This document shows, piece by piece, positions 28,068 to 61,343 of a DNA stretch of 64,000 nt (position 1 is its first letter; the number at the start of each line of letters is the position of its first letter). Origin of the DNA: Alphaproteobacteria bacterium (lineage in GTDB: Bacteria; Pseudomonadota; Alphaproteobacteria; Bin95); contig CBDBGH010000003.1 in NCBI GenBank assembly GCA_965205265.1, forward strand, positions 2,368,001 through 2,432,000. The letters run 5' to 3'. The translations under genes and the position numbers were made by a program. The notes under the pieces were generated by a model that searched no databases, was not told the origin of the DNA, and saw only the letters and a program-made list of their open reading frames with translations.

Positions 28068-28658
28068 TCGGAACTCGTAGGATACTTTTCTAACTGTGCC
28101 CGTCTTGTGATCTTCGATCAGTTGAGCCATGACGCATCTTGCTGCTTCAACACCATATTGCTCATTATATCGGTAAACTTGATTAAGCATAGTAAGCCAA
28201 TCCCCGCCGGATACTCCATCTGGTCGAGCAAATCCCAACTCTCCTAATCTACGCAACGTTATTGCAAAGTCAGCACCTAATTGTGTACCTTCGTGGTGCT
28301 CCAGTTCATCTGGCGTATCCAGCTGTTCCAAAAGATGTTTTGTGCCAGTTCGTAACAACCTCAATATTAGATCTCGTACTTCGTTGGCTTGTCGGTACAA
28401 AAGTTCAGCTTTCTTATATCTGTGACGTTTCTTAATTTCAACACACCAAATAATGTATGGCCAATTGAAATACAGAAAACTACCAATTCCAACAATAATC
28501 AAACCCACATATATGGATTGAATGTCTATAATTGCCTCAAACAATTCTTTGGCTTTTTCCGAAGGACCGGAGAAAAACTGTTGGGTAACGGCTCCAACCC
28601 ATCCCGCGCTCACTATACTGCCAGCCGCGCGAGCCGCATTCTTTCGCTTCGTGTCCAT
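28035..28658 (-). CDS. Low-GC hypothetical membrane protein
   Basis: AT-rich ORF with hydrophobic segments; its 3' end runs into the IS relic. Confidence 0.55.
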   Translation of the reverse strand: MDTKRKNAARAAGSIVSAGWVGAVTQQFFSGPSEKAKELFEAIIDIQSIYVGLIIVGIGSFLYFNWPYIIWCVEIKKRHRYKKAELLYRQANEVRDLILRLLRTGTKHLLEQLDTPDELEHHEGTQLGADFAITLRRLGELGFARPDGVSGGDWLTMLNQVYRYNEQYGVEAARCVMAQLIEDHKTGTVRKVSYEFRLTSSSRKWKR

Positions 28659-28738
28659 ATATGAATATTACAGTTTTTGTCTGAAATTGCAACACATCCT
28701 TACTTCAGACTCTGTAGAAACTTTGGTACCATAATCAT

Positions 28739-29263
28739 TAGCAGGCTGCGGAAGAACGTCCTGAGTGGGGGATTTTGTAGGCGCTTGTGGGCGTGATCGT
28801 GGTGATCGGCTCGATTTGTTCGAAGGGAAAAGTCGGCCGAGGCGGCGCAGCGGTGCAGCACTGCGGACCCCCGCCTTCGCGAGGGCAGACGGGAAGCCTT
28901 GTCGGGCGCGGCGTCGGCGTGACGGAGCGCGCAACGGCGGCCCTGCGCCGGGTCCCGGCGGTCATGGGGCAGCCTTTAAGAGCTTCGGCAGGCGGATCAG
29001 GTCGTAGGCTGCAAGCGCCAGGGTGAACTGCCAGTCCACCCGGGCCAGGCCGCGATGCCGGGTCTTCGAGAGGCGCGCCACCGTCTTCACCCAGACGAAG
29101 ACCTCCTCGATCCGTTTGCGGTGAACCTGGCTCGCTTGATACCCCTCGCTCGCCGCCATCTCCTCGCCGATATTCGAGCGCCGGCCCGCGGTGTTGCGCG
29201 CCGCATGCGCCTCAGCGCCGAAGGCTTTGCAGGTCCTGACGAACTCCGCCGTGTCATAGGCAT
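28739..29263 (-). pseudogene. IS5-family transposase C-terminal relic with IS end
   Basis: YDTAEFV...RKRIEEVFVWVK...RHRG...AAYDLIRL (stop 28962); end TTCCGCAGCCTGCTA. Confidence 0.7.
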
Positions 29264-29345
29264 ACAGGGGGGCTTCCGCTTCCCGGTCCCTGCGAGCAGG
29301 CTGGCGCCGGTCCCGAATGAGCGTCGACGAGAAACGGAGGACACG

Positions 29346-30083
29346 ATGACCGAATCTGAAGACCGAACCGCGAATCGGCCAGGTTTCTGGAACAGGCTCC
29401 ACAGGGCCGTCGTCGCGATTGAGCCTTGGAGCATCCTGGTGGCCGTTGTTGCGCTTCTCCTCACCGTCCTGCAGTTCTGGATCGAGTATCGGGATCGCGT
29501 GAACGAGCGGGTGGTGCGGGCTTGGACTCTTGTCACCACTGCTGCGCCCGGTAGCAGCGGCAAGAAGGAGGCGCTCGAATACCTGAACAGACAGGACGGA
29601 TGGCTTTGCTTCGAGGAGCAGCCGTGGGAGGGCTGTGCCGTCCTCCTGAAGTCGCGCTCCCCACTCGTCGGGATCAATCTGTCCGAGAAGCACCTCGGGG
29701 AAGGCGGAGCATTTCTCGGCGAGATCAACCTTCCAGAGGCTAACCTATTCGAGACCAATTTCTCAGGAGCGAATCTTGTCAGGGCAAACTTCTCAGGAGC
29801 GAACCTCCTCAGGGCAAACTTCTCAGGAGCGAGCCTCATCGGGGCGAACTTGTCAGAGGCACGCCTCCGTTCGGCGATTCTCCTAGGGGCGAACCTCTCA
29901 GGGGCGAACCTCTCAGGGGCGAACCTCCTAGGGGCGATCTTCTCAGGGGCGGACCTCTCAGGGGCGAACCTCTCAAGGGCGAACCAACTTTCTCAGCGGC
30001 AAATTGCTGCGGCTTGCGCGTTGCCAGATAACCCTCCGTCCCTGCCTCTATCGTTGACTTGGAACGAACGCCCGTGTCGATGA
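29346..30083 (+). CDS. Membrane-anchored pentapeptide repeat protein
   Basis: TM helix followed by A(N/D)(L/F)xx repeats; GGAGG RBS; 15-bp DNA repeat units AACCTCTCAGGGGCG. Confidence 0.85.
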   Translation: MTESEDRTANRPGFWNRLHRAVVAIEPWSILVAVVALLLTVLQFWIEYRDRVNERVVRAWTLVTTAAPGSSGKKEALEYLNRQDGWLCFEEQPWEGCAVLLKSRSPLVGINLSEKHLGEGGAFLGEINLPEANLFETNFSGANLVRANFSGANLLRANFSGASLIGANLSEARLRSAILLGANLSGANLSGANLLGAIFSGADLSGANLSRANQLSQRQIAAACALPDNPPSLPLSLTWNERPCR

Positions 30084-30307
30084 CACGAAATCCAAATAGT
30101 GTCTCAATCCGGGACGCACTCCAGTTCTTGGCGGGGCGTAATGGGTGTCGTTAAGCACCGAGCTCTGACCCTTCATGATCGAATGCGATCAATCGCTTAT
30201 GGCGTTGATCGGCGTCCAAGCATAGCGCCGGGCAACACGTTATGGGCCATAGTTGGTGGTGTTGTGGGCGTGGTATGCGGTCATCTCACGGCGCTTCGTC
30301 GGCGCAG

Positions 30308-31462
30308 TCAGGATCGACCTCCGGCCATGACATCCGCGATTCTATCGCCGACCCTTTCGGCTGCCGCCTCTATGTCACGGTCTGCAAGGTGGGCATAGCG
30401 CAGCGTCATTTGCACATTGGAATGGCCGAGCAAACGGGAGACCACCGGGACCGGCACCCCGTTCATGACCGCATGGCTCGCCATCGTGTGCCGCAGGTCG
30501 TGAAGGCGCACATCCTCGATACCGGCTTCCCGCCGAGCGCGGTACCAGAGCGGGAGAGTGACGCCGCGATGCCGCGAGGGATCGAGCGGCGACGGAAAGA
30601 CAAAGTCACTTTCTCCCCGAGGTTGGCGGTCGAGAATGCGCCGGGCTTGGCTGTTCAACGGAACCTGCCTCGGACCCGTCTTGCTGTCCGCAAGGACGAG
30701 CACGTCGGGATGAACCTCCGACCAGCGCAGGCAAACGATCTCGCCCTTGCGGCACCCGGTCAGAAGGAGAAGCCGGATGATGTCGGCCTGCTGGCGGCAT
30801 TCCTTCCGAGTCTGCGCGTCGAGGACCCGGTGAAGACGACCGACCTCCTCAAGGGACAGGAACCGCGTCAGCGTGGCACGCCGGTTCTTTCTCACGTCGC
30901 GCGCCGGATTCGTGTCGATATGGCCGCTGGCAACGGCGAAATTCATGATTTGCTGCAACACCTCGAGAGCACGATTGGAGCCGCCTGGGGCCGTTCGGCT
31001 GTAACGTTCGAACCATTGCCTGACATGCGCTGGAGTTATGCGGTCCAGAGGTTTCGTTCCGAATGCCGGAAGCAACCGGGTGTTGAGACGATAGGAGTCG
31101 GAACGCTGGGTTGATTGCTTGTAGCGGTCGAAATGGGTTTTCTTCCAAGGCCCTGCAACGAAGTCCCGGAACTGGGGAACCGTGCGCTGTGGCTTCCCTG
31201 TCTTCTCCAACTCCGGATTCGCCTTGCGCGCGTGGCATTCCCGACGAGCCTCGACGACCGTCCTCGCCGAAACCAGACCGAGCGAGAGGCGTCGCGAACG
31301 GCCGCCAATCTCCAGCAGCAGGACGTAGCTCTTTCCACCGGAGGGCCGGACGCGGACCCCCAGGCCCGTCATGCGGCTGTCCCAGACCGTGAATTCCTGT
31401 TCGCGGGGACGGAGACGGGCAATGGCCGCCTCGGTCAATTTCATCCTCTCTCTTGCTGCCAC
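30308..31462 (-). CDS. Tyrosine recombinase (pair B, gene 2)
   Basis: Same motifs as 17406-18671; HDLRH, TLRYAH. Confidence 0.9.
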   Translation of the reverse strand: MAARERMKLTEAAIARLRPREQEFTVWDSRMTGLGVRVRPSGGKSYVLLLEIGGRSRRLSLGLVSARTVVEARRECHARKANPELEKTGKPQRTVPQFRDFVAGPWKKTHFDRYKQSTQRSDSYRLNTRLLPAFGTKPLDRITPAHVRQWFERYSRTAPGGSNRALEVLQQIMNFAVASGHIDTNPARDVRKNRRATLTRFLSLEEVGRLHRVLDAQTRKECRQQADIIRLLLLTGCRKGEIVCLRWSEVHPDVLVLADSKTGPRQVPLNSQARRILDRQPRGESDFVFPSPLDPSRHRGVTLPLWYRARREAGIEDVRLHDLRHTMASHAVMNGVPVPVVSRLLGHSNVQMTLRYAHLADRDIEAAAERVGDRIADVMAGGRS

Positions 31463-31465
31463 CGC

Positions 31466-32587
31466 TCAGCCCTCCAGAACGGAGCCAACCGTTTCGACGG
31501 CGTCCCGAACCATCGCGTCGGCAAAATGGGTGTATTTGAGCGTCGTCTCCGCTTTGCGGTGGCCGAGGAGCCGTCCGATGGCGAGAACGGTCTCGCCCTG
31601 TTTCAGGGCAAGGGTCGCATGCGAGTGGCGCAGATCGTGAAGGCGCGCATCGCGCAATTCCGCTTCCTCGCGAACCTTCAGCCAGAACCGGTAGAGCCAC
31701 TCGCCACGCCGCGGACCGCCCGAGCGCGCTGCCGGGAATATCCAGGGGCTCGTCCGTTTGAGTGAGTCGAAAATGTTCCGGGCCGGCTGCGATAGCCATA
31801 CCGTTCGGGGACCGGTCTTGCTGTCGCGGAGAAAGAGATTGCCGTCCCGGTAGTCCGACCATCGCAGAGTAAGTACCTCGCTCTTCCGGCATCCCGTGAG
31901 CAAGAGGAGCCGGATGACGGCTACCTGAAGCGGATACCGCTTGGCGCGTGCCGACAACCTCACCGACAGGCGGCGGATTTCGTCCTCGGACAGGAACCGT
32001 TCGCGCCCTTTCCGGCGATACCGCTTGATACCCCGGCACGGGTTTGAGCCTTCCGGACGCAGACCCATCTTCTCCGCCTCCCTCATGATGACGGAAAGTA
32101 TCGGCATGGACCTGTCGGCCGCGGATGGCGTGGCGCGCAGCGAGGCGAACCAGTTCTGGACGTCCCGCCGGGCGATGTCACCAATTTCGCAGGTCGCGAA
32201 ATAGGGCATGATCTGATTCTTCAAATAGTGCCGGTTCGCATAAAGCGTTCCGGGCTTCCAGACCCGTTCGTAGCTCTGGAACACGGCCTCGGCGACGCTT
32301 TCGAAGAGCGACTCGTCGGGCCTGCCGGGTGCTTCCTCTCCGCGCCGAACTGCTGCGAGAACTTCGCTCGCCGAGGCCCGCGCCTCCTTCACGCTCATCG
32401 ACCCGCCATCGCCGACGATCTTCCAGACGCGCTCTCCTCGATGCTGACACTGGATGAAGTAGCGTTTCCGGCCGGAGGGTAGCACCCGGACGCCGAAACC
32501 CCTGAGTTTGCCATCGCGGACGTCGCGGACCGTCTTGCGGGGTTGAAGCGCCTTGACGCGCGCTTCGGTGAGAGTGACATTCGCCAT
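31466..32587 (-). CDS. Tyrosine recombinase (pair B, gene 1)
   Basis: 373-aa paralogue of 16281-17402; HDLRH, TLKY. Confidence 0.9.
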   Translation of the reverse strand: MANVTLTEARVKALQPRKTVRDVRDGKLRGFGVRVLPSGRKRYFIQCQHRGERVWKIVGDGGSMSVKEARASASEVLAAVRRGEEAPGRPDESLFESVAEAVFQSYERVWKPGTLYANRHYLKNQIMPYFATCEIGDIARRDVQNWFASLRATPSAADRSMPILSVIMREAEKMGLRPEGSNPCRGIKRYRRKGRERFLSEDEIRRLSVRLSARAKRYPLQVAVIRLLLLTGCRKSEVLTLRWSDYRDGNLFLRDSKTGPRTVWLSQPARNIFDSLKRTSPWIFPAARSGGPRRGEWLYRFWLKVREEAELRDARLHDLRHSHATLALKQGETVLAIGRLLGHRKAETTLKYTHFADAMVRDAVETVGSVLEG

Positions 32588-32713
32588 ACGTTGTCTCCCG
32601 GCTCCTGTTGCAGCCGGGGAAGCGCCGGTGGCAGTATTCGTTCCCCAGTTGCAAATTTTTAGGAGAAAAAACGACGCTATTTCAGATAGTTAGCACCCGC
32701 CGGTGCGAGGCCG

Positions 32714-48299: not shown

Positions 48300-49004
48300 T
48301 CAGCCTTTCAGCGCCTTCTCGAACAACGCGGCCGTGCGCCCGTTGGCGAGCGCGGCGTTCTCCTCGTCATAGGGCTGGCCGCCGATGCGCGCGAAGGCGT
48401 GGTCCATGCCTGGATAGGAATGCACTTGCGTGTGGGCGTGGCCGGCAAGCCCTTCCCTGACCGCCGCCTGCGCCTCCTTCGGCACGAAGCCGTCCTCCTC
48501 CGCGATATGCAGCATCAGCGGGGCGGAGATGTTCGCCGCCTCGTCCAGCATCTCCTCGATGCCGACGCCGTAATAGCCGACATTGGCGTCGAGGTCCGCC
48601 CGGCAGGCCAGCATGTAGGCGAGCTTGCCGCCGAGGCAGAAGCCGACCGAGCCGATCTTGCCGGTGCAGCCCGCCATGGCGCGCATGTGAGCGGCCGTCG
48701 CCTTCAGGTCGTCGATGCCCTTGTCCACGTCGAAGCCCCCGTAAAGCTCGAACGCCTTCGCCCATTCCTCGTCGGTCCGGTCCGTGATATCGACACCCGG
48801 CTCCTGCCGCCAGAAGAGGTCGGGCGCCACGGCGATGTAGCCCTGGCCCGCCCAGTATTCGGCGATGTCGCGCATGGCGTGGTTCACACCGAAGACCTCC
48901 TGGATGCAAAGCACGCCGGGCCCGGAGCCCGAAGCCGGCATGGCGCAATAGGCGGTGAACTCTCCCGAGCCGTCGCTGGCCCGGATGGTGATGGTCTCGG
49001 CCAT
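48300..49004 (-). CDS. Dienelactone hydrolase family protein
   Basis: QEVFGVN, APDLFWR, GFCLGG, YPGMDHAF. Confidence 0.9.
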   Translation of the reverse strand: MAETITIRASDGSGEFTAYCAMPASGSGPGVLCIQEVFGVNHAMRDIAEYWAGQGYIAVAPDLFWRQEPGVDITDRTDEEWAKAFELYGGFDVDKGIDDLKATAAHMRAMAGCTGKIGSVGFCLGGKLAYMLACRADLDANVGYYGVGIEEMLDEAANISAPLMLHIAEEDGFVPKEAQAAVREGLAGHAHTQVHSYPGMDHAFARIGGQPYDEENAALANGRTAALFEKALKG

Positions 49005-49239
49005 GTCCGGCCTCCCTCTCGAACTGCCGGGCCCGCCCGCCGGGCCCATGAACCGGTGCCGGCCGGCACTCTCCCAAGGGCTGCCGGACCGCATCCTCTC
49101 CGCCACCATAGCCGCGCGCTCCGCCGCCGCACAAGCCAAGCGGCGGCGGAAGCCGGGCCGCACACCTGCCGGGAGTGTCATGAAGGCAAATCATGCACTT
49201 TAAGCATCGTATCGATAGCAATTTCGGTATCATGCCGGA

Positions 49240-50271
49240 ATGGTGGAGATGTTCTCTAAACGCGCGAGTTCCCGCTCGCTCGCGAACCTTGCCCCGGGCG
49301 AGGTAAAGTCCGTGGTCGAGGGATACAACGCGATTTACGACGCCGGCGAGCAGGGCAGGAGAGAGCAATACCGCTCGCTCGTAAATCACTACTATGACCT
49401 GGTTACCGACTTCTACGAGTTCGGCTGGGGCCAGTCTTTCCACTTCGCGCCCCGGCGGCGCGGCGAGAGCTTCAAGGCGTCGCTGCTCAGGCACCAGCAT
49501 TTTCTCGCCGACCGGCTGGCCCTGAAGCCGGGGATGCAAGTGCTCGATGTAGGATGCGGGGTCGGCGGGCCGATGGGCAACCTGGCGCGCTATGCCGGCG
49601 CCGGCTTTGTCGGCATCAACAACAATACCTACCAGATCGAACGCGCGAAACATCATACCCGGGATGTGCGCTCGTTGTGCCGCTTCATCCACGGCGACTA
49701 CATGCGGATTCCCGAAGGCGACGATCGCTACGATGCCGCGTTCGCCATCGAGTCCATGCCCCACGCGCCGGACAAGACGGGGGCGTTCCGCGAAATCCTG
49801 CGCGTCCTGCGCCCGGGCGCCTGTTTTGCGGGTTACGAGTGGTGCCTCACCGATGATTTCGACCCCGCAAACGCGGAGCACCAGTGGATCAAGAACGAAA
49901 TCATGGTGGGGGATGCGCTACCGGAGATCGCGTCCATGCCGGAGATTTGCGACGCCTTGCGCACGGCCGGGTTCGAGCTTCTGGAAGCCGGGGACCGCGC
50001 GCCCGAATCGGATCCCGGGACGCCATGGTACCGCGCCCTGCAGGGCCGCGACCTCACTCTTTCGAGCATTCCGCGCACGCCTTTCGGTCGGGCTCTCACC
50101 AATCTGACGCTGCGGGCGGGGGAGAGGCTGCGGCTGTTCCCGAAAGGCTCCCGCGCAGTCAGCACGCTGCTGAACGCGGCGGCGGATGCGCTGGTCGAAG
50201 GCGGCAGGACGGGCATCTTCACGCCGATGTATTTCTTCCTGGCCCGCAAGCCTCAGCGCCCCGGCGGCTGA
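49240..50271 (+). CDS. smt: Sterol 24-C-methyltransferase (SMT/ERG6-like)
   Basis: YYDLVTDFYEFGWGQSFHFA, LDVGCGVGGP, AIESMPHAP, LRPG..F..YEW, GIFTPMY. Confidence 0.9.
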   Translation: MVEMFSKRASSRSLANLAPGEVKSVVEGYNAIYDAGEQGRREQYRSLVNHYYDLVTDFYEFGWGQSFHFAPRRRGESFKASLLRHQHFLADRLALKPGMQVLDVGCGVGGPMGNLARYAGAGFVGINNNTYQIERAKHHTRDVRSLCRFIHGDYMRIPEGDDRYDAAFAIESMPHAPDKTGAFREILRVLRPGACFAGYEWCLTDDFDPANAEHQWIKNEIMVGDALPEIASMPEICDALRTAGFELLEAGDRAPESDPGTPWYRALQGRDLTLSSIPRTPFGRALTNLTLRAGERLRLFPKGSRAVSTLLNAAADALVEGGRTGIFTPMYFFLARKPQRPGG

Positions 50272-53223
50272 ACGCGGCGCGTCCCCGGCCGCAGGGCCAC
50301 CGGCGCTCAGGAAAGGGAACGGGCGGAAACCGCCTCCGGCAAGGGCGGCGCCGACCCGCCGGTGCAGGCAGCAGGAGCGGCGAGGTCCACCCGGTTCCGG
50401 CGGCGGCGCTCATAGAGGCCGAGCGCGTGCAGCGGGAAATACTGCCGGTAGAGCACGTAATCCAGAAGCGCCGTGCGGAAGAACACGCCGGCCATGTCCT
50501 GTTTGGGCCATGCCCCTTCGCCGTCCTGCGTGTCGAGCAGGAACCGGGCGCCCCGCGAAATCGCGGTCCAGTCCGGGTCTCCCGCCTCGAGGAGCGCGAT
50601 CAGGGCCCAGGCGGTCTGGATGACCTGGCTCTCCTCGTGCGGGACATAGCGGCCGGTCAGGCAGCCGCTGTGGTGCTCGCCCCATCCTCCGTCTTCACGC
50701 TGGCGCTCCAGCAGCCAGCGGCAGGCCGAACGCAGCGCGGGATCGCCGGGACGGGCCCCGGCGGCAAGCAGGCCCCTGATGCCGAACAGGGTGCCGTAGA
50801 TGAACTGGACGCCCCATACGCCGCGCCATGACCCATCGATCTCCTGGGCCCGGCGCAAACAGGTCTCGGCCCTCGAAACGGCCTCCGTCACCGCCCCATC
50901 CGCAATTTCGGGAAACCGCTCCCTGCAGGCGGCCAGCGCGGCGAGGCAGGAAGCGGTGCACTCCACGAAGGAATGCTCGGTCATCGAATCGCCGAACATC
51001 TCGGCCGGATTCAACCATTCCAGACCGAAAACCGAACGCTGCGCCTCATAGCTGCCGAATCCGCCGTCGCGGTTCTGGCCGCGCAGCATGAAGGCGACCG
51101 CATCGCCGAGCGCCGCCCAGTCCGCACCGCCGGCCGCGATGAGTCCGAGCACCGCTTCCGCCGTGCAGTCGCTCACCGGCCAGCCATGCCAGCCGCCCGC
51201 AAAGCACCAGCCGCCTCTGGGGTCGGTCCGGTAGGCCTCGCGAAACCCCTCGAAGCTCCTATCGATCTGCTCACCCAGCAGGAAACCGGCGCCGCGCCCG
51301 AGCGCCTCCTCGATCCCGGCGGGTTCGGGCAGCGCCGCCAGCGCCTGCAGCGCGAACCCCGTGTCCCAGGAGGCGCTTCTCGCGCCGGTGACGCGCGCGC
51401 CTTCGTCCTCGTCTTCCCAGATCCACCCGTCCAGCTGCTCGAGTGCCTGCTCGCAATCGGCATCATCCGGATCGTGCAGCCATAGCGCCAGAATGTTGAG
51501 GAGGCCGCTGACCGGGGAGATGCTCGTGTGGCTGGTGGTTTGCAGTTCCCATTTGATGCGCCCGACAAGCGCCTCCGTGCATCTTGCGCGAAGGCGCCTG
51601 GCGTGGAACCGCTCGAACAGCCGCGCCAGCCCGTATCCGGCCCTGAGCCAGAGGCTCGGCCACCGATAGAGGTCGGCCACCCGCAGGCGATTTCGGGCGG
51701 CAGAGAAATCGACACTGGCAAAGCCTTGCGGGAACAGCTCCTCCCGCAGCGACTCGGTCAGTGGCGTAACGGGCGCCTGGAACCGGCGCGCGTAAATCGC
51801 CGCCATCGCCATGTAGATGAGCCGGGTATGGCAGTACCAGTTCGAGGGGTGCAGCGGCAACCGGCGCGGCAGACTCCAGAGTTCCGGCAGAACCGCGTTC
51901 ACCCCGCGCCAGTCATAGAGGTTGAGGAGCGCCAGCCAGAATTTTCCCCAGCTCGGAATGCCCAGAACCCCTTCGGCCTGAAGGAACCGCCGGGCCGGCT
52001 CGACCAGGGGATCGTCCCGCCCGACGCCCAGCAATCTCGCCGCGACATAGACGAGCGCGGTGACGAACAGGTGGGGCGGCGAGTGCTCGTGCAGGCCCCA
52101 TGCGCCGCCTTCGAGACGGGTCCGCTCGAAGGAGCGCAGCACGCGCCGGCGGCGGCCCGGTTCCAGCGGCCGTCCGACAATGTGATGCAGCAGCGCATAT
52201 TGCGCGGTGAGCATGGGGCACCAGACCATCTCGCCTTCCCAGGCGCCGTCCTCTCTCTGGAGGCTCAGCAGGCGCGCGGCCGCGCTTTTCAACGCCGGCC
52301 CGGCATCGGGCGGTTCGACCTCCCTTGAGCGCGCGGGCCTGGAGGGTTCGCCCCCGGAAGGCATGGAGTACAGGAAGGCGCGGGCAAGGGCGTCGCGGGT
52401 TTGCCTGTTTTCTTCCCGGCCCTCGCGACTCGCCTTCCGCAACTGCCGAACGCCGCGCTGGAGCCACCAGATGCGAACGGCGAGCGCACTGAAGACGGCC
52501 CGCGCCCGATGCGAGGCGAAGCGGCGGAACGAGAACGGATTCTCCCGGGTCAACGCCCGGGTCACCGTGCCGCAAAATGCGAGTGTCATGCCGATCGCGG
52601 ACCGGTCCTCGCAGGCGAGTATCCGCGTGGTCCGGTCGCGGTAGGCCGAATTCGCCCGCCAGCCTCGGTAGATCGCGGATCTGAGGGCCATCGACTCGAT
52701 GCGGTAATCGGCGAAGACCTCATAGAGCCCCATTGCCAGGAACTCGGGAATACGGGTCGCCCGGAAGCGTTCGGCGGTGAAGTCCCGGAAGCGCTCGTTC
52801 TCGGCGAGCGTCAGCGCATCGCCGAAACCGAGCGTCATGCCGACCGCCGTCATGGGATGGTAGTGCCCGGCCGCGTCGCCGATCAGCACCCGGCGCGGGC
52901 TGCCGTACGTGACGCGCGGCCTCAGCCGATTGGCCGCCGCATGGAATTGGCCCGCCCGCAGCGCCTCGACGAAGGCCGGCCCGAGAGCCCCCGGCAGCAG
53001 CCCGGCACAGGATTCCGACAGGAAGGCGACCCGGTCCCGGGGCGTCCAGCGGTCCAGCGGCAGATCGACGATGATCCGGACGCAACCGCCCGCCAGACCG
53101 TATATGAGGATCGGACCGGGCCCGCCCAGCACCACATGCCCGTAGCCTTCGAAGGGCAGGTCCGCCCCGCCTATCGTCACTCCCAGCATCCGCGAGCAGA
53201 GCATCGGGTCCGTGGAGAGCCCC

Positions 53224-55137
53224 CTGACTTCGACGGTTGATTCGCATAAGTAGTTGATATTGCCTGGTTCTCATTTCGGCTAGGCACTACATCCGGCATT
53301 TCTTCGAGCCGTGCTTCGTCGACGGTCAGGCGAGTTGATACGGGGTGATCGTCAGGGGCAGCCCCATGGTTGCGTAAATCTGCTCCGCCGCCGGTGTCGG
53401 CTTCGAGGGGATGACGTAGCGGTTGCCCGATTGCCGACAGCGCAGCAGGGAGCACTGGCGGTGGACGAGGGCGGAGCGGATGACCTCCGGGGACATCCGC
53501 CGCTTCTGGATGGCGACGCGGTACGCAAGGTGTCGAACGCAGGCGAAGGCCAGGAAGGCGATGGCGATGTGAGCGCGGATCCGGTCCGGGTTCCAGTGCC
53601 AGATGGGACGTATCTTCAGGTCGTGTTTGGTGATCCGGAAGCTCTCCTCGACCTGCCAGAGCCCCTGGTAGTGAGCCATCACTTCGGTGACGCGCGCGTC
53701 GCGCAGATTGGTGATGACGCCGGTGAGCCCGTCCCATCGTGCGGCCTCGGCGATCTTCTCCGGGTTCACCGTGAGCCGTGCGTCGCCCTCGACGGCGATG
53801 AAGCGCTTCGCCCCGTGATTGGAGAGCAGTTCCCTGGGATTGTCGCTGCGGGCCAGCCTGTCGAGCAGGCGTTCCACCTGATGGCGGCGCTCGTGCGCGT
53901 CCTTGCGTGCGCGCTGGGGGCAGAAGACGACGATCAGGCGACGGCCCTTGTACTCCCACTCGCCGACCCGGCGGTCCTGTGAGCCCTCCAGCGGGGCATA
54001 GGTCCCGGGGTCGAGAACCTGCCCCAGCAGCGCGAGCGGCAGCTTGCGCAGCCGCGCGCCGACGACATACTCGCCGCCGATGGCGTCCATGGCGTCGAGG
54101 TTGTCGGCGCTCAGCATGCCCCGGTCGGCCACGCATACCGTGCGCTCCACCTGGTGGCGGCGCTGCATGTCCTGCAGGACCGGGACCATGCTGTGTCCCT
54201 CGTAGGTGGCGCCGGGGAAGACCTCGTAGCTGATCGGCAGCCCTTCGCGCGTCACCATCAGCGCCAGCAGAACCTGCGAGTCCTTGTGTTTGCCGTCCTT
54301 GCTGAAGCCGTGCTGGCGAAGCTCGTCCTCGGCGGCCGTCTCGAAGTAGAGCGTGGTGCAATCGAAGAAGAGGATCGCGACCGGCTCCGGCAGCAGCGAC
54401 CGGCTCGCCTCGCCGACGCGCGTGCGCAGTCGCTCGATCACCGTCGCGTCGAGCTGATCCATCATCCGGTAGACCTTCTCGAGCGGAAGACTCACGCCGA
54501 AGTCCTCCTCGAGCCGGCGCACGCTGCCCCGCTTGCTGTCGGGGTTGGCTACCCGCGCCATCACCACATGGAACAGCGCGTCATGGGAGGCCCGGTAGCG
54601 CGAGCGCGGCAGCAGCGCGTCGAGGCCCAGCAGCCGGTAGATCTCGCCATAGACCTCGTGGATGCCTGTGATCAGGCGCTGCTCCTCTTCAAGCTGCTTG
54701 AGGTCGACCGGGAGTTCCTCCTTGCCGTCCCCCCGGCGGCCGACACGGATCGCCTGCTCAGCGATCTTCTCGGGCGCAAACAATGCCGGCTGACGCTCGT
54801 CCTCCAGCTTCGCCTTGACGTACTCGCCGAGCTGCCTCAGGCGCTCGAGCTCGTCCTCGTCCATGGCCACGCCGACATGGCGGACGATGCGCTGTCGGAC
54901 CTTGCCGCCGTCGCGCACGGCCTCGACGATCTGGACCGAGCGTCGCGGGCTGTTGGGGGAGGTCTTGATGCGCACGAACATGGGGGGAGTGTAGCGCGTG
55001 GCGGAGGCATTGACAGTCTCAAAGATTTACTAGGCACTACAACGCAGCTTGACCGCACCGCAACTGCCAACTCATTGGCTTTACTGAAAACTCCAGACGC
55101 GAGATCGGTCAGAAGTCAGCCCAACCGTCGAAGTCAG
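53224..55137 (-). mobile_element. IS1634-family element, copy 2 (~1914 bp)
   Basis: Same TIRs and identical translated transposase as copy 1; 118-bp direct repeat at 53106-53223 and 55138-55255. Confidence 0.9.
53326..54981 (-). CDS. IS1634-family DDE transposase
   Basis: 551 aa, identical to 21089-22744. Confidence 0.9.
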   Translation of the reverse strand: MFVRIKTSPNSPRRSVQIVEAVRDGGKVRQRIVRHVGVAMDEDELERLRQLGEYVKAKLEDERQPALFAPEKIAEQAIRVGRRGDGKEELPVDLKQLEEEQRLITGIHEVYGEIYRLLGLDALLPRSRYRASHDALFHVVMARVANPDSKRGSVRRLEEDFGVSLPLEKVYRMMDQLDATVIERLRTRVGEASRSLLPEPVAILFFDCTTLYFETAAEDELRQHGFSKDGKHKDSQVLLALMVTREGLPISYEVFPGATYEGHSMVPVLQDMQRRHQVERTVCVADRGMLSADNLDAMDAIGGEYVVGARLRKLPLALLGQVLDPGTYAPLEGSQDRRVGEWEYKGRRLIVVFCPQRARKDAHERRHQVERLLDRLARSDNPRELLSNHGAKRFIAVEGDARLTVNPEKIAEAARWDGLTGVITNLRDARVTEVMAHYQGLWQVEESFRITKHDLKIRPIWHWNPDRIRAHIAIAFLAFACVRHLAYRVAIQKRRMSPEVIRSALVHRQCSLLRCRQSGNRYVIPSKPTPAAEQIYATMGLPLTITPYQLA

Positions 55138-55754
55138 GAGGATCGGACCGGGCCCGCCCAGCACCACATGCCCGTAGCCTTCGAAGGGCAGGTCCGCCCC
55201 GCCTATCGTCACTCCCAGCATCCGCGAGCAGAGCATCGGGTCCGTGGAGAGCCCCAGCGACCGGCGCACGATCGAGGCCCGGCCGTCGGCGCCGACGATG
55301 CGCGCGGCGGTTACGGCGCGCTCGTCGCCGCCTACGGAAAAGGCGACCTGCCCGTCATCGACCGCCTTGACCCGTGCGTGGGAAATGAAATCGACACCGG
55401 CCTCCTCCTCGATCGCTTCGCGGAGGCTCGAGACAAGCAAGGCGTGGTCGCACGCCAGACCGCGGGACCCGTCCGGGTAAGGAAGCAGGATCGGCTCCGA
55501 GCCGTCCTCCGGAAACACCGCGAATCCGTTGCCCGGGGTGCTGCGGGGCAGCGCGTCGATGTCTATCCCGACCTCGCGCAATATCCTGACGGCCGGCGGA
55601 TGCAGCCATTCGCCGGCCAGGCGCCCCGACGCCCTGGGATTGGCTTCCAGCAGGGCCACGCGGGCGCCCCGGCGCGCATGGGCGAGCGCGCACAGGCTCC
55701 CCACCGGGCCCGCGCCGACAATGGCTACGTCGTAAGGCCGCCCCGCGGCGGCGC

Positions 55755-57164
55755 TCATCGGAAAACGCTCGGCTCCGCGCGGCGGCGGTAGCGGACCCGG
55801 CACGGGGCCTCGGGCCCCGTCACCCAGCTGCCGTAATTCGGGCGCGGGAACCTCGAGTCGGCAGTGAAGTCGAAGCGGTCGAGCAGAACCGTCCAGATCG
55901 CCTTGAGCTGCATATAGGCGAAGTTCTTGCCCATGCATGCATGTTTGCCGCCGCCGAAGCCGATCAGGGCGTAATGGTGCTGCCTGTCCTCGCTGGCGGG
56001 GGGCGCGAAACGGTCGGGGAAGAACCGCTCCGGGTCGGCGAAGACATGGGGCAGGCGGTGGGAGACCGCCGGCGACACCATGGCCATGGTGCCGGCAGGC
56101 ACGACACTGCCCCTGTAGCGGAGCGGTTCGAGCACCTTCCGGATCAGCAATATCAGCGGCGGGTGCAACCGCTCGCATTCTCGCACGGCGTTTTCCATCG
56201 CCGGCTGGCGCTGGAGGCTGTCGAGGCTTATGGACCCCGCTTCGCGGTAAACCTCCCGCATCTCCTCCCTCAATCGCGCCAGGTAGGAGGGCGCCCTGAA
56301 GAGCTCAAGGCCGGTCCAGGTCGCAAGCACCGCGCTGGTGTGCTGGCCCGCGAACAGCACCGTCAGCAGAATCCCCGTGATCTCGTCGTCGCTGAGAGCG
56401 CGGCCATCCTTGTAACGGGCATTCATGAGCGTCTGCATGAAGTCGTCGGGGCCGCCCCCTGCATGGCGGCGCGCCGCCATGATCCCGCCGAAGATCTCCG
56501 CCACCTTCCGCCGGGCCCGGTCACGGCTTCTGTGCGCGGGGGTGGGAAGTCTCGGAAGGAAGAACCCGAGCGTGTTAATACCCTTCTGCAGGTCGTGGTA
56601 GGCCTCGGCGAATCCGGTGTCCACCCGGTCGCGGACCTCCTGCCCGATCAGGCAGCGGCTGGCGATCCTGACGGTGAGCTCGTTCATCGCATGCGGCAGG
56701 TCGATGTTCCCCTCCTCGCCGAGGGCGTCGGCGAAAGCGCTCGCCTCCTCGAACATGATGAGGGCGAATTTCCGCATGGCGGCCTCGCGGAGCGCGGGAA
56801 ACAGGAATCCCAGCTGCTCCGCCATGATTTCCGGCGAGGTGTCATAGGCCACGCCGCGCCCGAAGACGGGCACGGTGAAGCGGTAGACCGCCTTGGCGTT
56901 CAGCTGGGTCTCCGGCGCCCTGAAATAGAAGTCGTGGGCTTCGGGCCCGGCGAAGAGGACGAAATCGCGGACACCCAGCCTGAAGCGGAAGAGGTCGCCA
57001 TGCTCGCGCCAGCCGCGGCTCAGCATGGCGACCGGGTCCCGCTGGAATTCCCTGAGATGGCCGATCAGCGGCCAGCTGCCCGCCAGTTCCGGAACGGGCT
57101 CTTCCGGCCGCGGCGGGGGGTCCGCGGCATGCAGGGTCGCCATGCTGTGAGACCGGTTCGCCAT
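55755..57164 (-). CDS. cyp51: Sterol 14-alpha-demethylase cytochrome P450 (CYP51)
   Basis: YRFTVPVFGRGVAYD, AGQHTS, ECERLHPP, FGGGKHACMG. Confidence 0.9.
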   Translation of the reverse strand: MANRSHSMATLHAADPPPRPEEPVPELAGSWPLIGHLREFQRDPVAMLSRGWREHGDLFRFRLGVRDFVLFAGPEAHDFYFRAPETQLNAKAVYRFTVPVFGRGVAYDTSPEIMAEQLGFLFPALREAAMRKFALIMFEEASAFADALGEEGNIDLPHAMNELTVRIASRCLIGQEVRDRVDTGFAEAYHDLQKGINTLGFFLPRLPTPAHRSRDRARRKVAEIFGGIMAARRHAGGGPDDFMQTLMNARYKDGRALSDDEITGILLTVLFAGQHTSAVLATWTGLELFRAPSYLARLREEMREVYREAGSISLDSLQRQPAMENAVRECERLHPPLILLIRKVLEPLRYRGSVVPAGTMAMVSPAVSHRLPHVFADPERFFPDRFAPPASEDRQHHYALIGFGGGKHACMGKNFAYMQLKAIWTVLLDRFDFTADSRFPRPNYGSWVTGPEAPCRVRYRRRAEPSVFR

Positions 57165-57172
57165 CCCCGCCC

Positions 57173-58273
57173 TCAATGGATGAACGGCAGCATCGAGAAA
57201 CGCGCCTGCTGCGTGTAGCGTTCCCACAGCTCGCCGTATTTGGCCCGGCAGCGGCGCTCGTCGCGTATCGAGCGGTGCCACAGGAGACCCGCCAGCCATG
57301 CCGGCAGCAGGTAGGGGACCCAGGATGCGAACCCGGTCGTCAGCGCGAAAGCGAGATAGATGCAGATCTCGCCGGTATAGTTGAGATGCCGCCCGATTCC
57401 CCAGAATCCGGAGACCAGGAGTCGCCCGTCCAGGGTCCGGGCGGGCTGCCCCCAGATCGTGACATCGGGGTCGCGCTTGAAGCCGTGCTTCTGCTGGTTT
57501 GCTCCGCGGAAGAGCCAGAAGCCGAAGGCGAACAACAGGACGACGGCCATGGCGGCGGCCGGAGACAGCGGGTCCGGCGCGTGAACCAGCCACCAGCCGG
57601 GCAGGCAATAGAAGAACGGCACCAGCACATAGTCGCCCCAGACCAGCATCCATCCGAAGCGCTCGCTGATGATGTCCCAAGTGTGGATCATGCCGTGCTC
57701 GAACTGGAAGTAGTTGAGCACGTAGAGGAAGGTGAACGCCTGATAGAGCGCCATCGCCAGGGTAAGCTCGCCATAGGTTTCCCACTGCACGACGGCGAAG
57801 GAGGCGTTGAAGAGCGCCAGGCCGATGAGGGAGGGGCGGTAGCTGAACAGCTTCAGGTCCAGCCCGAACCGGACCGGGCCGGCATCGACGCCGCCGAAAT
57901 AGCCCCGCCAGAATCCCGGCGGAGCGCCGGGCGCCCGCGCGCCCCGCAGATACAGCCAGCCCGCAAGCGCGAAGGCGAAGGCGTTCGCCGCCACGAACAG
58001 GGCGGCGAAGTGGGTGTAAAGCGCCGAAAGGGAGAACCAGCCGAAGAACTGGGCGAGGCCCGCCGCGAACGCGGCGATCAGGAAAAGCGCGAGGCCGTTC
58101 AGCTTGTAGATGCGCTCATTGCCCTCGGCGTCCGGCCCCGCGATGCGGCGGCCGGGAAGGACAATCGAACCCAGGAAGAGCAGCGCGACGAACACCAGCG
58201 CCATTGCCGCCGCTTCGAGCAACGCCCCGCCCGACAGCGCGGACGACAGGGGGGACGCTTCAGGCAGGGACAC
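57173..58273 (-). CDS. ERG4/ERG24-family sterol reductase (probably Delta-14)
   Basis: YKLNG, DLKLF...RP, DIISERFGWMLVWGD, LLVSGFWG..RH.NYTGE, RDERRC..KYG. Confidence 0.88.
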   Translation of the reverse strand: MSLPEASPLSSALSGGALLEAAAMALVFVALLFLGSIVLPGRRIAGPDAEGNERIYKLNGLALFLIAAFAAGLAQFFGWFSLSALYTHFAALFVAANAFAFALAGWLYLRGARAPGAPPGFWRGYFGGVDAGPVRFGLDLKLFSYRPSLIGLALFNASFAVVQWETYGELTLAMALYQAFTFLYVLNYFQFEHGMIHTWDIISERFGWMLVWGDYVLVPFFYCLPGWWLVHAPDPLSPAAAMAVVLLFAFGFWLFRGANQQKHGFKRDPDVTIWGQPARTLDGRLLVSGFWGIGRHLNYTGEICIYLAFALTTGFASWVPYLLPAWLAGLLWHRSIRDERRCRAKYGELWERYTQQARFSMLPFIH

Positions 58274-59345
58274 CGCCGTCCCCCGACCCGCGGGCCAGAG
58301 TTTCCCGCCATTTGCGCACCGTGACTTCCTGAAAGGCCTTGACCACCGGATTGAACTCGACGGGCCGCGCGTCCCAGTGTTTCTCGTAACCCTCCTGTTC
58401 CGCTTCGAGCGCAAACCGGTCCTGGTCGAGCAGGGGGGCGATGAGCGCGCGGTTGGAGATTTTCATCACCGCAGTCATGGCGAAACGCGGAATGCGCACC
58501 GGCAGGAACGGTATTTTCAGAGACTTGAAATAGAACAGGAAGAACACCCGGGTGGTGCGTTCGTCCATGGGCAGCACGAACAGCCAGTGCTTGATCTCGT
58601 CATCGGTGTTCGACCACTGGTAGGGATATTCGTAGCAGAGCTCCATACGGTTGGTGTTGAGCCGCTCATGGTCCACGAACAGCCCCGAGATGCGCCCGCG
58701 CCCGACGCGCGTGTCATAGGCGAGATGCACATTGTCGCCGACGGTTTCGCAGGAGGCGAGCTCGGCTCCGTCGAAGGGCCGGTAGCGGCGGTGCAGATGC
58801 GCATGGGTGAAGTCGCTCACATTGTCGATCACCATCGAGTGGTGCGCCGCCCATGTGAAGCGCAGCGGCACGCAGGTCCAGCGGCCGGGCCCCTCCAGCT
58901 CGGGAATCTCCGGGATCCCGCGCTGCTCCGCCTGCTCCGGGTCGCCCGGGAAGAGCCAGACCAAGCCGTAGCGGACCTTCACCGGATAGGTCTTGAGCGC
59001 AAGCCGCGGGAAGCTTCGCCCGTTGCCGTCATAAGGGACCCCGGCAGGACGCTCCCTGCCGCCATATTCCCAGCCGTGATAGGCGCACACCAGCCGGCAT
59101 CCCTCCACATGACCGATGGAGAGCTTGAGCTGGCGGTGCGCGCAGCGGTTCTCGATCGCCTGGAAAGAACCGTCCGTTCCCCGGAACAGCGCAATCGAGT
59201 GCTTCCAGAAAACGACCTCGACCACCGTTCCCGGCTTGACCCGGCGCACTTCCTCCACCGCATACCAGTAATTCGGGTCCATGCCCGCGGCGCGCGCCTG
59301 CTGGCGGAGCGTGCCGGCCTCCTCGAAGCAGGGCGGCGGCCTCAT
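58260..59345 (-). CDS. Rieske oxygenase, SdmA-like candidate sterol C-4 methyl oxidase
   Basis: CAHR...CAYHGW Rieske ligands; DNVSDFTHAHLH mononuclear Fe motif; sterol-cluster context. Confidence 0.75.
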   Translation of the reverse strand: MRPPPCFEEAGTLRQQARAAGMDPNYWYAVEEVRRVKPGTVVEVVFWKHSIALFRGTDGSFQAIENRCAHRQLKLSIGHVEGCRLVCAYHGWEYGGRERPAGVPYDGNGRSFPRLALKTYPVKVRYGLVWLFPGDPEQAEQRGIPEIPELEGPGRWTCVPLRFTWAAHHSMVIDNVSDFTHAHLHRRYRPFDGAELASCETVGDNVHLAYDTRVGRGRISGLFVDHERLNTNRMELCYEYPYQWSNTDDEIKHWLFVLPMDERTTRVFFLFYFKSLKIPFLPVRIPRFAMTAVMKISNRALIAPLLDQDRFALEAEQEGYEKHWDARPVEFNPVVKAFQEVTVRKWRETLARGSGDGGVPA

Positions 59346-60502
59346 GTCGCGCTCCCGCCCGGCATCGCCTGGAGGCCCGGGTGCGGCGCGGGATTTTCCG
59401 CCCCTCCCGCGGCGCGCTGATCCGGGACGTCGGCGCGCGGCGGTTTTGCGGACGGATTCACGATTGCGTTGCGGGCGAAGTGAAATGCGTAGGCTTCATG
59501 AACCGCGTCGCGGATGCCGGTCGGCCGGTAGCCGAGCTCGCGTTGCGCCTTGCCGGTGTCGGCATGGCGGCGCTTTTTCAGCAGGCGGATGGCGCCGGGC
59601 GTGAAGCGCTGGGGAAAGTCCGGATGGAACCGGCTCAGGTAAGAGCTCGCCACTTCCGAAAAGGCGAGCATCAGGGGGGCGGGAATCCGCCGGCGCGGCC
59701 TCGGGACGCCCGAGACCTCCTCATACAGACCCACGATCTCCGAGATGGTCTTGTACTCGCTGCTGAAGATGTATTTTTCGCCCGAGCGGCCGCGGCGCAT
59801 GCACAGCAGGTGCCCCTCGACAATGTCGCGCGCCGCGACGAACTCGAACCCGCCGTCGATATAGGCATGAAGCTTGCCATTGGTGTAGTCGCAGAGCGTC
59901 CTTCCCAGCCGCGAGGGCAGATAGTCGGCGCCTCCCACCACTGCGCAACAGGTCGCGACCACGACATCCTGCCCTGTGGCCGCCGCGCGCCAGCATTCCT
60001 GCTCGACCAGCGACTTGCTGCGCTCATAGGGCATCGTGCGTTCCATGGGATAGAACGGCATTGTCTCGTCGCTGGGCGCGGACGGATCGTCCAGATCGTA
60101 GCCGACCGCGCTGAAGGAGCCGGTCACGACCACACGGCCGGCCTCGGCTTCCCGCGCCGCCTGCAGCACGTTGCGGGTGCCGCGAACATTGCACTCGAAC
60201 ACCTCCCGGCGATGGGCCCGGTTGCCCTCGATGGTCGATATCTTGGCCGCGACATGATAGACGCCCCGGCAGCCGGCGAGCGCCTGCCTCGTGGCATTCA
60301 AATCCCGGATGTCGCCGAACACGCGCTCCACATCGAGGCCTTCCAGCCCCTCATTGTTGTCCTCGCACCTCAGCAACACCCGGACCCGCACGCCGTCGCC
60401 GAGCAACCGGCGCACGAGATTGGCGCCGACATGCCCGGCCGAACCGGTAACGAAAACGGGCGGCGTCGGCGAACCCGCCGGCATGCTCGATGGAGACGTC
60501 AT
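59342..60502 (-). CDS. NAD(P)-dependent epimerase/3-beta-HSD family, SdmB-like candidate
   Basis: VTGSAGHVG, GDIRD, YERSK; ATGA overlap with the Rieske gene. Confidence 0.75.
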   Translation of the reverse strand: MTSPSSMPAGSPTPPVFVTGSAGHVGANLVRRLLGDGVRVRVLLRCEDNNEGLEGLDVERVFGDIRDLNATRQALAGCRGVYHVAAKISTIEGNRAHRREVFECNVRGTRNVLQAAREAEAGRVVVTGSFSAVGYDLDDPSAPSDETMPFYPMERTMPYERSKSLVEQECWRAAATGQDVVVATCCAVVGGADYLPSRLGRTLCDYTNGKLHAYIDGGFEFVAARDIVEGHLLCMRRGRSGEKYIFSSEYKTISEIVGLYEEVSGVPRPRRRIPAPLMLAFSEVASSYLSRFHPDFPQRFTPGAIRLLKKRRHADTGKAQRELGYRPTGIRDAVHEAYAFHFARNAIVNPSAKPPRADVPDQRAAGGAENPAPHPGLQAMPGGSAT

Positions 60503-61121
60503 CGTAGCCGCTTTCCGCTAAAGGGAGCGGGGAGCCAATCCAGTTCCGTGAGATGGGGACAAAGTCTTGCCGACAACACCGTTCACTCACCGGCCGGCAT
60601 CGCAACGGCAGGTGCATTGAAGCGAATCCACGCCTGTTTGCGCCATGAGATATCGCAAATTCTTCATGCCTGTGCCTCCATCTCCGGGAAGGCTGCGGTA
60701 CCGGCGGGCCGGCATGAAACCGAACGGCATAGAGGGTATACAAAAAGGCTTATTTGTCAAATACAACACGCCCGTAGCGCTCTCGCTTCGTCCGGAAAGC
60801 GAATGCCCCACCCGGGAAAAAGACCCCTTGCGTCATCCCGGTTTTCTTCCGCCCCGGTGACGCCGCAGCCGGTGGAGAGGAGGCCGAAGCGGCGAGGTCG
60901 TCATGGCAGGCCGAAGACTTCGACCGCAGCCATGACGGCTCCGGCACTCGAGCCAAGAAGGGAACCTCTGTTGGACCGGTTGGACAAGACCGAATTTTCT
61001 TCTTTATTTTCAACGCCTCGGTTCGAGACGGTTGGACACTTTATGTCCTTGACCTTACTGCAAAAATAGATTTCCGTTGGGGTCACCACGCGGCACAGTC
61101 CCCGCCAGGAGGCGCAACCCC

Positions 61122-61343
61122 ATGTCCGAGCGGACCCTGTCCATCGAATATTGCGTGGCTTGAAACTACGAGCCGCGCGCCCTCCGTGCGAGGGACATCC
61201 TGCAGGCGAATACCGGCCTTGCCGTGAACCTGGTCAAGGGCGGCGGCGGCGTCTTCGAAATCCGGCGGGACGGCGAGATGCTGTTCTCCAAGAAGGCGAC
61301 GGGGCGCTTCCCGACCGACGAGGAATTGCACGCGCTGCAATAG
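61122..61343 (+). CDS. SelT/SelW/Rdx-family selenoprotein (in-frame TGA read as Sec)
   Basis: AGGAGG RBS; MSERTLSIEYCVA-U-NYEPRA...GGGGVFEI..DGEMLFSKKATGRFP; hairpin 3' of the TGA. Confidence 0.85.
61180..61194 (+). promoter_or_regulatory. Candidate bacterial SECIS apical hairpin
   Basis: CCCTC-CGTGC-GAGGG starting 16 nt after TGA 61161-61163. Confidence 0.55.

Follow-up and report, generated by a model that had tools for sequence, protein, structure and literature searches.

An IS1634-family element splits the epoxidase-cyclase gene of a bacterial sterol operon and has probably switched off de novo sterol synthesis

Introduction

Can a compact sterol gene cluster in an alphaproteobacterial-labelled genome still carry squalene through to a finished sterol? 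The cluster occupies positions 49240-60502 of the window, by which is meant the whole 64,000-nt stretch analysed (positions 2,368,001 to 2,432,000 of contig CBDBGH010000003.1, assembly GCA_965205265.1, Alphaproteobacteria bacterium; GC ~70%), itself part of a 5.46-Mb contig (C3 below) in a 5.70-Mb, three-contig genome. An earlier reading of these letters alone (the sequence-only reading) held that the locus encodes the route from squalene to a cyclized, demethylated and 24-alkylated sterol. In its present state the locus does not: an insertion sequence (IS) divides the gene on which the first two steps depend. We consider it probable that this is a sterol operon of the type published as the msb locus and the 'clusters of steroid genes' (CSGs), that its fused squalene epoxidase::oxidosqualene cyclase gene (SE::OSC) has been broken by a recently multiplied IS1634-family element, and that de novo sterol synthesis is most likely off.

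The epoxidase-cyclase gene is split by an insertion sequence

Five genes follow one another on the minus strand, encoding an SdmB-like short-chain dehydrogenase/reductase (SDR), an SdmA-like Rieske oxygenase, an ERG24-type reductase, CYP51 and the SE::OSC fusion, and the gene for a sterol methyltransferase (SMT) converges on them from the plus strand. The features are as follows (aa, amino acids; ORF, open reading frame).

49240..50271, plus strand: predicted C-24 sterol methyltransferase (SMT/ERG6-like, msbF-like), 343 aa, convergent with the operon (Pfam)
50307..53105, minus strand: 3′ part of SE::OSC, with the C-terminal epoxidase half and a complete oxidosqualene (lanosterol-type) cyclase (Pfam, TIGR03463)
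50307-53204, minus strand: longest ORF of the SE::OSC 3′ part, 965 aa, with its ATG start inside the duplicated segment
53106..53223, no strand: target-site duplication, copy 1, 118 bp, 100% identical to 55138-55255
53224..55137, minus strand: IS1634-family insertion sequence, 1914 bp, with 16-nt perfect terminal inverted repeats
53326-54981, minus strand: transposase ORF of the IS1634-family element, 551 aa, in the same orientation as the operon
55138..55255, no strand: target-site duplication, copy 2, 118 bp
55138..55758, minus strand: 5′ part of SE::OSC, the N-terminal FAD-binding epoxidase portion, 207 aa, reading on into the IS to a stop at 55081
55755..57164, minus strand: CYP51 sterol 14-alpha-demethylase, 469 aa from the ATG at 57164
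57173..58273, minus strand: predicted ERG24-type sterol delta-14 reductase, 366 aa from the GTG at 58273
58260..59345, minus strand: SdmA-like Rieske oxygenase (putative C-4 methyl oxidation), 361 aa, with Rieske and VanA_C domains
59342..60502, minus strand: SdmB-like NAD(P)-dependent SDR (putative C-4 decarboxylation / 3-keto reduction), 386 aa, with Epimerase and 3Beta_HSD domains
49152..61074, no strand: cluster-specific segment, approximate extent, between flanks kept in cluster-less congeners

A repeat search showed that the 1914-bp element (53224-55137) is flanked by a perfect 118-bp direct repeat (53106-53223 = 55138-55255), of which these are the only two copies in the genome. When the IS and one repeat copy were taken out in a script, the frame that begins with the ATG at 55758 ran open, as one, for 1139 codons, which argues for an ancestral fused state. 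Three congeners (G005, G010 and G016) carry the complete cluster without the IS; nucleotide alignments to them stop at 53223 and resume at 55138, and both 118-bp copies map to one segment of their intact genes. In addition, 80 related loci were examined, being the best 80 of 284 cyclase-part relatives in a species-representative collection, many of which end at contig ends; 79 of the 80 have both SE::OSC halves, and in 78 of these one half runs into the other without a gap or a change of frame.

The break falls inside the FAD-binding fold (FAD_binding_3 profile positions ~193-237). The only start available to the downstream piece is the ATG at 53204, inside the duplicated segment, and the two epoxidase fragments overlap by 39 duplicated residues. 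The sequence-only reading had spoken of an epoxidase-cyclase fusion and had set the IS apart from the genes. Both enzyme parts are indeed present, but they do not form one gene here, as the element, with the 118-bp duplication at both its ends, sits within the epoxidase domain. Judged by its sequence, the locus is an msb/CSG-type member by descent, now broken.

The transposase scores 341.3 bits on NF033559 (IS1634-family; cut-off 100) and has a DDE_Tnp_1 domain. A BLAST search of the genome returned the element in full length 55 times (53 matches at 100% and two at 99.95% identity) and in part at least 14 times. Of the 55 full-length copies, 22 lie between exact direct repeats that range from 35 to 575 bp; for the other 33, no such repeat was found within 600 bp. 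Long and variable target duplications are a hallmark of the IS1634 family, the type element of which comes from Mycoplasma mycoides. The element thus resembles its family in a transposase above the NF033559 cut-off, in terminal inverted repeats and in long variable target duplications (35-575 bp), yet differs in its high-GC host and in the unusual size and uniformity of its burst, with 53 identical copies among the 55 of full length. A second identical 1914-bp copy lies in the window at 20987-22900 (G000:C3:2388987-2390900), flanked by an exact 200-bp direct repeat, and another lies just left of the window at C3:2360201-2362114, with a 328-bp repeat.

No second cyclase of the OSC or squalene-hopene cyclase (SHC) kind and no second squalene epoxidase were found in the genome, where the sole family match of each is the SE::OSC gene; tblastn likewise returned no second CYP51, SMT, SdmA or SdmB. 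Because the fusion gene is split and the genome has no other epoxidase or cyclase of these families, de novo synthesis is probably blocked: epoxidation and cyclization, and hence de novo sterol synthesis, have most likely been lost in this genome. The other five cluster genes align full length to their orthologues, and dN/dS does not differ between pairs that include this genome (0.04-0.28) and pairs among the three intact congeners (0.085-0.235). The knock-out looks recent, as 53 of the 55 IS copies do not differ from one another, none of the five tailoring genes has lost its integrity and no relaxed constraint is seen.

In the intact form, one fused SE::OSC protein would epoxidize squalene and cyclize it to lanosterol, with the squalene supplied by an unlinked squalene-synthase-like gene. 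CYP51 would next carry out C-14 demethylation, the ERG24-type reductase delta-14 reduction and the SdmA/SdmB pair C-4 demethylation, and the SMT would last methylate C-24, so that the expected product of an intact cluster is a 4-demethylated, 14-demethylated, 24-methyl(ene) delta-8-type sterol. In this genome the IS1634-family element, having recently multiplied to at least 55 copies, has inserted in the epoxidase domain and duplicated 118 bp of target. What is left is an N-terminal epoxidase stub of 207 residues and, without a promoter, a fragment made up of the C-terminal epoxidase part and the cyclase.

Identities of the encoded enzymes

Comparison with Pfam, NCBIfam and PDB sequences bore out all six gene identities of the sequence-only reading, each where that reading had placed it. 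The cyclase scores 739.4 bits on TIGR03463 (oxidosqualene cyclase; below the subfamily cut-off of 851) versus 265.4 on TIGR01507 (hopene cyclase), and 451 bits against human lanosterol synthase (1w6k) versus 182 against SHC. Grouping with the hopene cyclases had been named beforehand as an outcome that would count against a sterol locus; by both the TIGR03463 and the 1w6k scores the protein is an OSC. It has the Pfam domains SQHop_cyclase_N and _C, its VSDCTAE (with the catalytic Asp) aligns with the human VSDCTAE, and it has Val at the position equivalent to human V453; positions 381 and 449 are Ala and His, unlike the eukaryotic lanosterol pattern. In the consulted passages of Wei et al. 2016, Val at 453 tracks lanosterol and Ile tracks cycloartenol.

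The C-terminal epoxidase half covers positions 28-163 of Pfam SE and stands in frame ahead of the cyclase, and the N-terminal part covers FAD_binding_3 profile positions 2-193 and has a GAGPVG dinucleotide-binding motif. For the P450, CYP51/sterol 14-alpha-demethylases make up the top 56 of the 60 listed PDB matches (355.5 to 197.7 bits), with the next non-CYP51 P450 at 136, so that on the second check proposed earlier the protein falls with CYP51. Its best match (355.5 bits) is 6mcw, a 551-residue chain titled 'Cytochrome P450 51', which we take to be the Methylococcus capsulatus protein; the likeness to CYP51 extends over the full length and includes a heme-thiolate motif, GQHTS and FGGGKHACMG both being present. 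The SMT scores 81.5 bits on Pfam Sterol_MT_C (PF08498; cut-off 21.7), has Methyltransf_11 / SAM-methyltransferase domains in addition, and contains the motifs YEFGWG (at residue 59) and LDVGCGVG. It is 79-95% identical in amino acids to cluster-linked SMTs in relatives and is the single true SMT of the genome (tblastn), a predicted C-24 sterol methyltransferase.

The reductase, a predicted delta-14 reductase, scores 226.7 bits on Pfam ERG4_ERG24 (PF01222), above the cut-off, and its best PDB match is the delta-14 sterol reductase 4quv (223.5 bits). By far the best NCBIfam model for the Rieske protein, which has a CxH...CxxH motif, is SdmA (NF052579; 399.9 bits, below the curated cut-off of 600). 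For the SDR, with the motifs GSAGHVG and YERSK, the best model is SdmB (NF052578; 285.7 bits, below the cut-off of 600), with HpnA at 234.8 bits. An adjacent, overlapping gene pair within a sterol operon fits a predicted SdmA/SdmB C-4 demethylation pair.

The window contains no squalene synthase, as the sequence-only reading had noted; a squalene-synthase-like gene lies 1.73 Mb away at C3:688239-689453 (L085 8239-9453), with TIGR01559 as its best model (114 bits, below cut-off). It is 68% identical to a gene that adjoins the cluster in the related locus L059. It is also present in four of five same-genus genomes without an OSC/SHC match (81-87% identity; with an in-frame TGA in one), and since these cyclase-less congeners keep it, it is not tied to the cluster. 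A disrupted IS copy lies ~0.8 kb upstream of it in this genome. A second ERG4/ERG24-family reductase of 377 aa, unlinked and 32% identical to that of the cluster, is encoded at C3:3038612-3039745 (L084 7612-8745), where it adjoins TauD-family dioxygenase genes.

Relation to published sterol clusters

The architecture of the cluster matches the published msb locus and CSGs and is not new. The sequence-only reading had pointed out that C-24 alkylation classically counts as a eukaryotic biomarker trait; in a bacterial cluster it no longer surprises, as bacterial C-24 alkylation and this type of cluster have both been published.

Mohanty et al. 2020 (Mar Drugs 18:124, PMC7074536) described the msb locus from a gammaproteobacterium that lives in symbiosis with the sponge Melophlus sarasinorum. 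It has six genes in the same order as here: an SDR (msbA) overlapping a Rieske oxygenase (msbB), a sterol reductase (msbC), a lanosterol 14-demethylase (msbD), a bifunctional squalene epoxidase/sterol cyclase with the lanosterol-type valine (msbE), and an SMT (msbF). In both cases the squalene synthase is elsewhere in the genome, in msb on another scaffold. The present locus differs in its alphaproteobacterial-labelled host and in the IS-split msbE homologue, the two loci being likened by published description.

Kelly et al. 2022 (Microbiome 10:164, PMC9531527) found CSGs in 115 of 537 Ircinia metagenome-assembled genomes (MAGs), spread over 10 phyla, and report both purifying selection on them and their horizontal transfer. 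Their ERG24-CYP51-LSS core is preceded, as here, by a 'DFR' (SdmB-like) and a 'hypothetical protein' (SdmA-like); an SMT or FDFT1 lies on the opposite strand in CSGs, and an SMT does so here. The sterol clusters in Brown et al. 2023 (Nat Commun 14:1859, PMC10070321), which come from uncultured bacteria, symbionts of Aplysina aerophoba among them, share sdmA, sdmB, OSC and SMT with this one, and the Methods of that paper name 'fused SMO/OSC homologs'. The bacterial SMTs studied there make 24-methyl, 24-ethyl and, in three cases, 24-isopropyl sterols in vitro; the activity of the SMT here is a predicted one. An IS-interrupted copy of such a cluster is not described in the consulted passages of PMC7074536, PMC9531527 and PMC10070321, and those of PMC12324236 and PMC8237579 make no mention of an SE/OSC fusion.

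The Rieske oxygenase and the SDR best match SdmA and SdmB models that NCBIfam built on the system of Methylococcus capsulatus. That bacterium, as Lee and colleagues are said to have described in 2018, has a separate squalene monooxygenase and OSC, a CYP51-ferredoxin fusion and SdmA/SdmB. Here, in contrast, the epoxidase and the cyclase are fused by descent, the 469-aa CYP51 carries no ferredoxin domain, the cluster includes an SMT, and SdmA and SdmB both score under the equivalog cut-offs.

Alternative explanations

Assemblers are classically misled by identical elements in many copies, and with more than 55 copies of this one and a genome contamination estimate of 7.28%, the IS could have come to stand inside the gene through an assembler misplacing a repeat copy. 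We hold such an artefact to be extremely unlikely, given that a precise 118-bp target duplication at the exact IS ends is the signature of IS1634-type transposition and that such duplications recur at 22 of the 55 copies. The reads argue the same way. In run X1, which contains 0.99 of the sampled words, short unitigs span both IS/repeat junctions at depths (19.3 and 28) on the level of the unique flanks (20.2 and 30.6). One unitig coincides with the 118-bp repeat and has a depth of 49.2, about double the flanks; the depth of the IS unitig is 1743. Run X3 adds a 1436-nt contig that passes from the cyclase 25 nt into the IS with no mismatch. Nor is there any sign of a chimeric contig, an outcome that the sequence-only reading had asked to be considered. 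The X1 junction unitigs count as supporting evidence, not proof. Two RNA runs, X19 and X20, contain 0.17 and 0.07 of the sampled words.

Several points weigh against a broken pathway. The X1 junction unitigs have only 23-30 letters per side, below the 31-letter bridging rule, X1 may be the same sample as the source of the assembly, and Logan contigs drop rare variants, which makes a minority of empty-site cells in X1 possible. The transposase is co-oriented with the operon and the in-frame ATG at 53204 opens a 965-aa ORF with the whole cyclase, so that read-through could yield a cyclase-containing protein; the 39 duplicated residues shared by the epoxidase fragments leave complementation conceivable. 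One fatty-acid-hydroxylase-family (FA_hydroxylase) gene lies elsewhere in the genome, and the alternative squalene epoxidase of some eukaryotes belongs to the fatty-acid-hydroxylase superfamily; the same gene occurs in three of five cluster-less congeners. As for the tailoring steps, both the SdmA and the SdmB matches are under their NCBIfam equivalog cut-offs. On such grounds the pathway might still work here, through a mixed population with many intact cells or through complementing split products made by read-through, and the other genes show no relaxed constraint. An empty-site allele does exist: run X5, which belongs to a different study, has a single 479-nt contig in which 53105 is followed at once by 55138 (depth 5, with seven differing letters, ~1.5%). 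Almost no depth lies over the IS in that run, and the two observations together point to a closely related strain with an intact gene and without the burst. We nonetheless think a working pathway unlikely. No empty-site contig was seen in X1, X3 or X4 (X4 being without cover at the junctions), and the junction depth in X1 equals that of the flanks. The FAD-binding fold itself is interrupted, the ATG at 53204 lacks a good ribosome-binding site ahead of it, and a very recent insertion would equally leave dN/dS unchanged. A different proposal concerns the product, namely that the intact cluster supplies a specialized triterpenoid, for example the 30-nor-lanostane aglycone of sponge saponins, and not a membrane sterol, in which case the loss here would be that of a secondary metabolite. 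Mohanty et al. 2020 (PMC7074536) did propose that the sarasinoside sterol core derives from a cluster of identical architecture (msbA-F). We rate this as very unlikely for the present locus, since no glycosyltransferase or other tailoring genes adjoin the cluster, the occurrence of CSGs in 115 of 537 MAGs and 10 phyla under purifying selection (Kelly et al. 2022, PMC9531527) fits a general membrane role better, and the in vitro products of SMTs from clusters of this kind are ordinary 24-alkyl sterols (Brown et al. 2023, PMC10070321).

An msb/CSG-type operon with a broken SE::OSC gene thus stays the preferred reading. A further idea is offered tentatively, and we are inclined to doubt it: that a symbiont lineage has been caught giving up de novo sterol synthesis with its five tailoring genes intact and apparently under constraint. 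If these genes are still used, the bacterium would modify sterols or intermediates from a host or neighbours, for example by C-24 alkylation or C-4 demethylation; the 'sponge biomarker' sterol route would then be shared between partners, and the related genomes would form a natural knock-out series on the roles of bacterial sterols.

The locus matters in several ways. Clusters of this type bear on whether 24-alkylated steranes from old rocks can serve as markers of animals or eukaryotes, a point already made experimentally (Brown et al. 2023, PMC10070321). In a high-quality assembly of three contigs, the committed step of the pathway appears to have been interrupted naturally by a very recent transposon burst, and within one genus the cluster is variably present, placed and decayed. 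The presence of marker genes in metagenomes should accordingly be read with caution, as it is not a count of 'sterol producers'. Matched natural variants (intact, cyclase-broken, tailoring-broken and absent) are at hand for testing what sterols do in bacteria.

Distribution, transfer and decay among relatives

The 80 related loci carry labels of eight phyla, at 58-92% amino-acid identity: Pseudomonadota (alpha and gamma), Binatia, Thermodesulfobacteriota, Acidobacteriota, Gemmatimonadota, Chloroflexota, Nitrospirota and Verrucomicrobiota. Within the DNA fetched, the six operon parts are found in 59 of the 80 and all seven parts in 45, and the identical order with a convergent SMT in 31. Sponge-derived names occur among them (Spongia_Bin9 and lac_sponge); runs labelled 'sponge metagenome' contain only 0.21-0.26 of the sampled words.

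Within the genus, a cyclase match was found in nine of 16 other species (seven over the full length, one truncated where its contig ends, one a fragment) and in none of the remaining seven; two sister genera gave no match in eight genomes. Homology of the left flank (RecQ, dienelactone hydrolase) ends near 49151 and that of the right flank (DegP-like onward) starts near 61074. RecQ plus dienelactone hydrolase stand beside the cluster in none of the 80 related loci and DegP in one, at 39% identity, and RecQ, dienelactone hydrolase and DegP are all absent at the cluster in four same-genus loci. Both flanks are kept in all five cluster-less congeners (78-88% nucleotide identity), where they lie 80 kb to 2.8 Mb apart. 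Conserved flanks that are not adjacent in cluster-less congeners place the cluster-specific segment at ~49152-61074, at a synteny break. The suggestion that the cluster was horizontally acquired is plausible, in view of its patchy presence in the genus (nine of 16; sister genera zero of eight), its varied contexts and the separation of its flanks in cluster-less congeners. The assignment to a probable alphaproteobacterium fits as well: two same-genus loci are at least 98% identical over ~4.9 kb to Alphaproteobacteria bacterium DNA.

Synonymous distances (dS) among congeners (comparison of L092, L093 and L094) are mosaic: between G010 and G016, dS is 0.07 for CYP51 and 0.05 for the epoxidase part versus 0.57 for the SMT, a pattern that suggests recombination or piecewise exchange within the cluster.

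The complete congener G008 (locus L095, G008:C1:2340000-2359500) keeps a fused SE::OSC in a 1165-aa ORF. CYP51 and SMT survive only as fragments anywhere in that genome, and ERG24 only as a stub at this locus. An MMPL transporter, with a weak sterol-sensing-domain match, is inserted in the former operon, inside which a GPP34 domain is also joined to a P450 C-terminal fragment. From its gene content, G008 is taken as a second, independent decay of the cluster.

Gene junctions and other features of the window

With the most plausible starts, three of the four junctions in the operon overlap, in agreement with the sequence-only reading. The sdmB/sdmA junction has a 4-nt overlap (ATGA), sdmA/erg24 a 14-nt overlap, given the GTG at 58273 as start, and cyp51/SE a 4-nt overlap (ATGA) in which the SE ATG at 55758 overlaps the CYP51 stop; erg24 and cyp51 are separated by an 8-nt gap. 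A longer ERG24 ORF of 413 aa from the TTG at 58414, with a 155-nt sdmA overlap, was rejected as probably too long. Its extra 47 N-terminal residues match the sdmA 3′ end (other frame) and not erg24 in all four of the checked loci without an upstream sdmA, and the ERG24 orthologue of L038 is a 363-aa ORF, favouring the short form; the GTG at 58273 is the likely start. Across the sdmA 3′ end (58260-58414), the second frame is open and apparently conserved in 63 of 63 loci. It thereby imitates a 155-nt overlap with erg24, yet it follows sdmA where the two genes are apart and is a by-product of sdmA conservation in GC-rich DNA. A promoter and terminator scan of 49000-61200 gave one promoter-like and eight terminator-like sites, no excess over shuffles (1.2 and 7.7).

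Elsewhere in the window, a low-GC stretch at 28000-32600 (0.56-0.62 versus ~0.70) contains two tandem phage-type integrase genes on the minus strand (30308-31462 and 31466-32587), a gene for a pentapeptide-repeat protein (29055-30083) and a DDE transposase fragment. By its composition and gene content, this stretch looks like the remnant of an integrated element.

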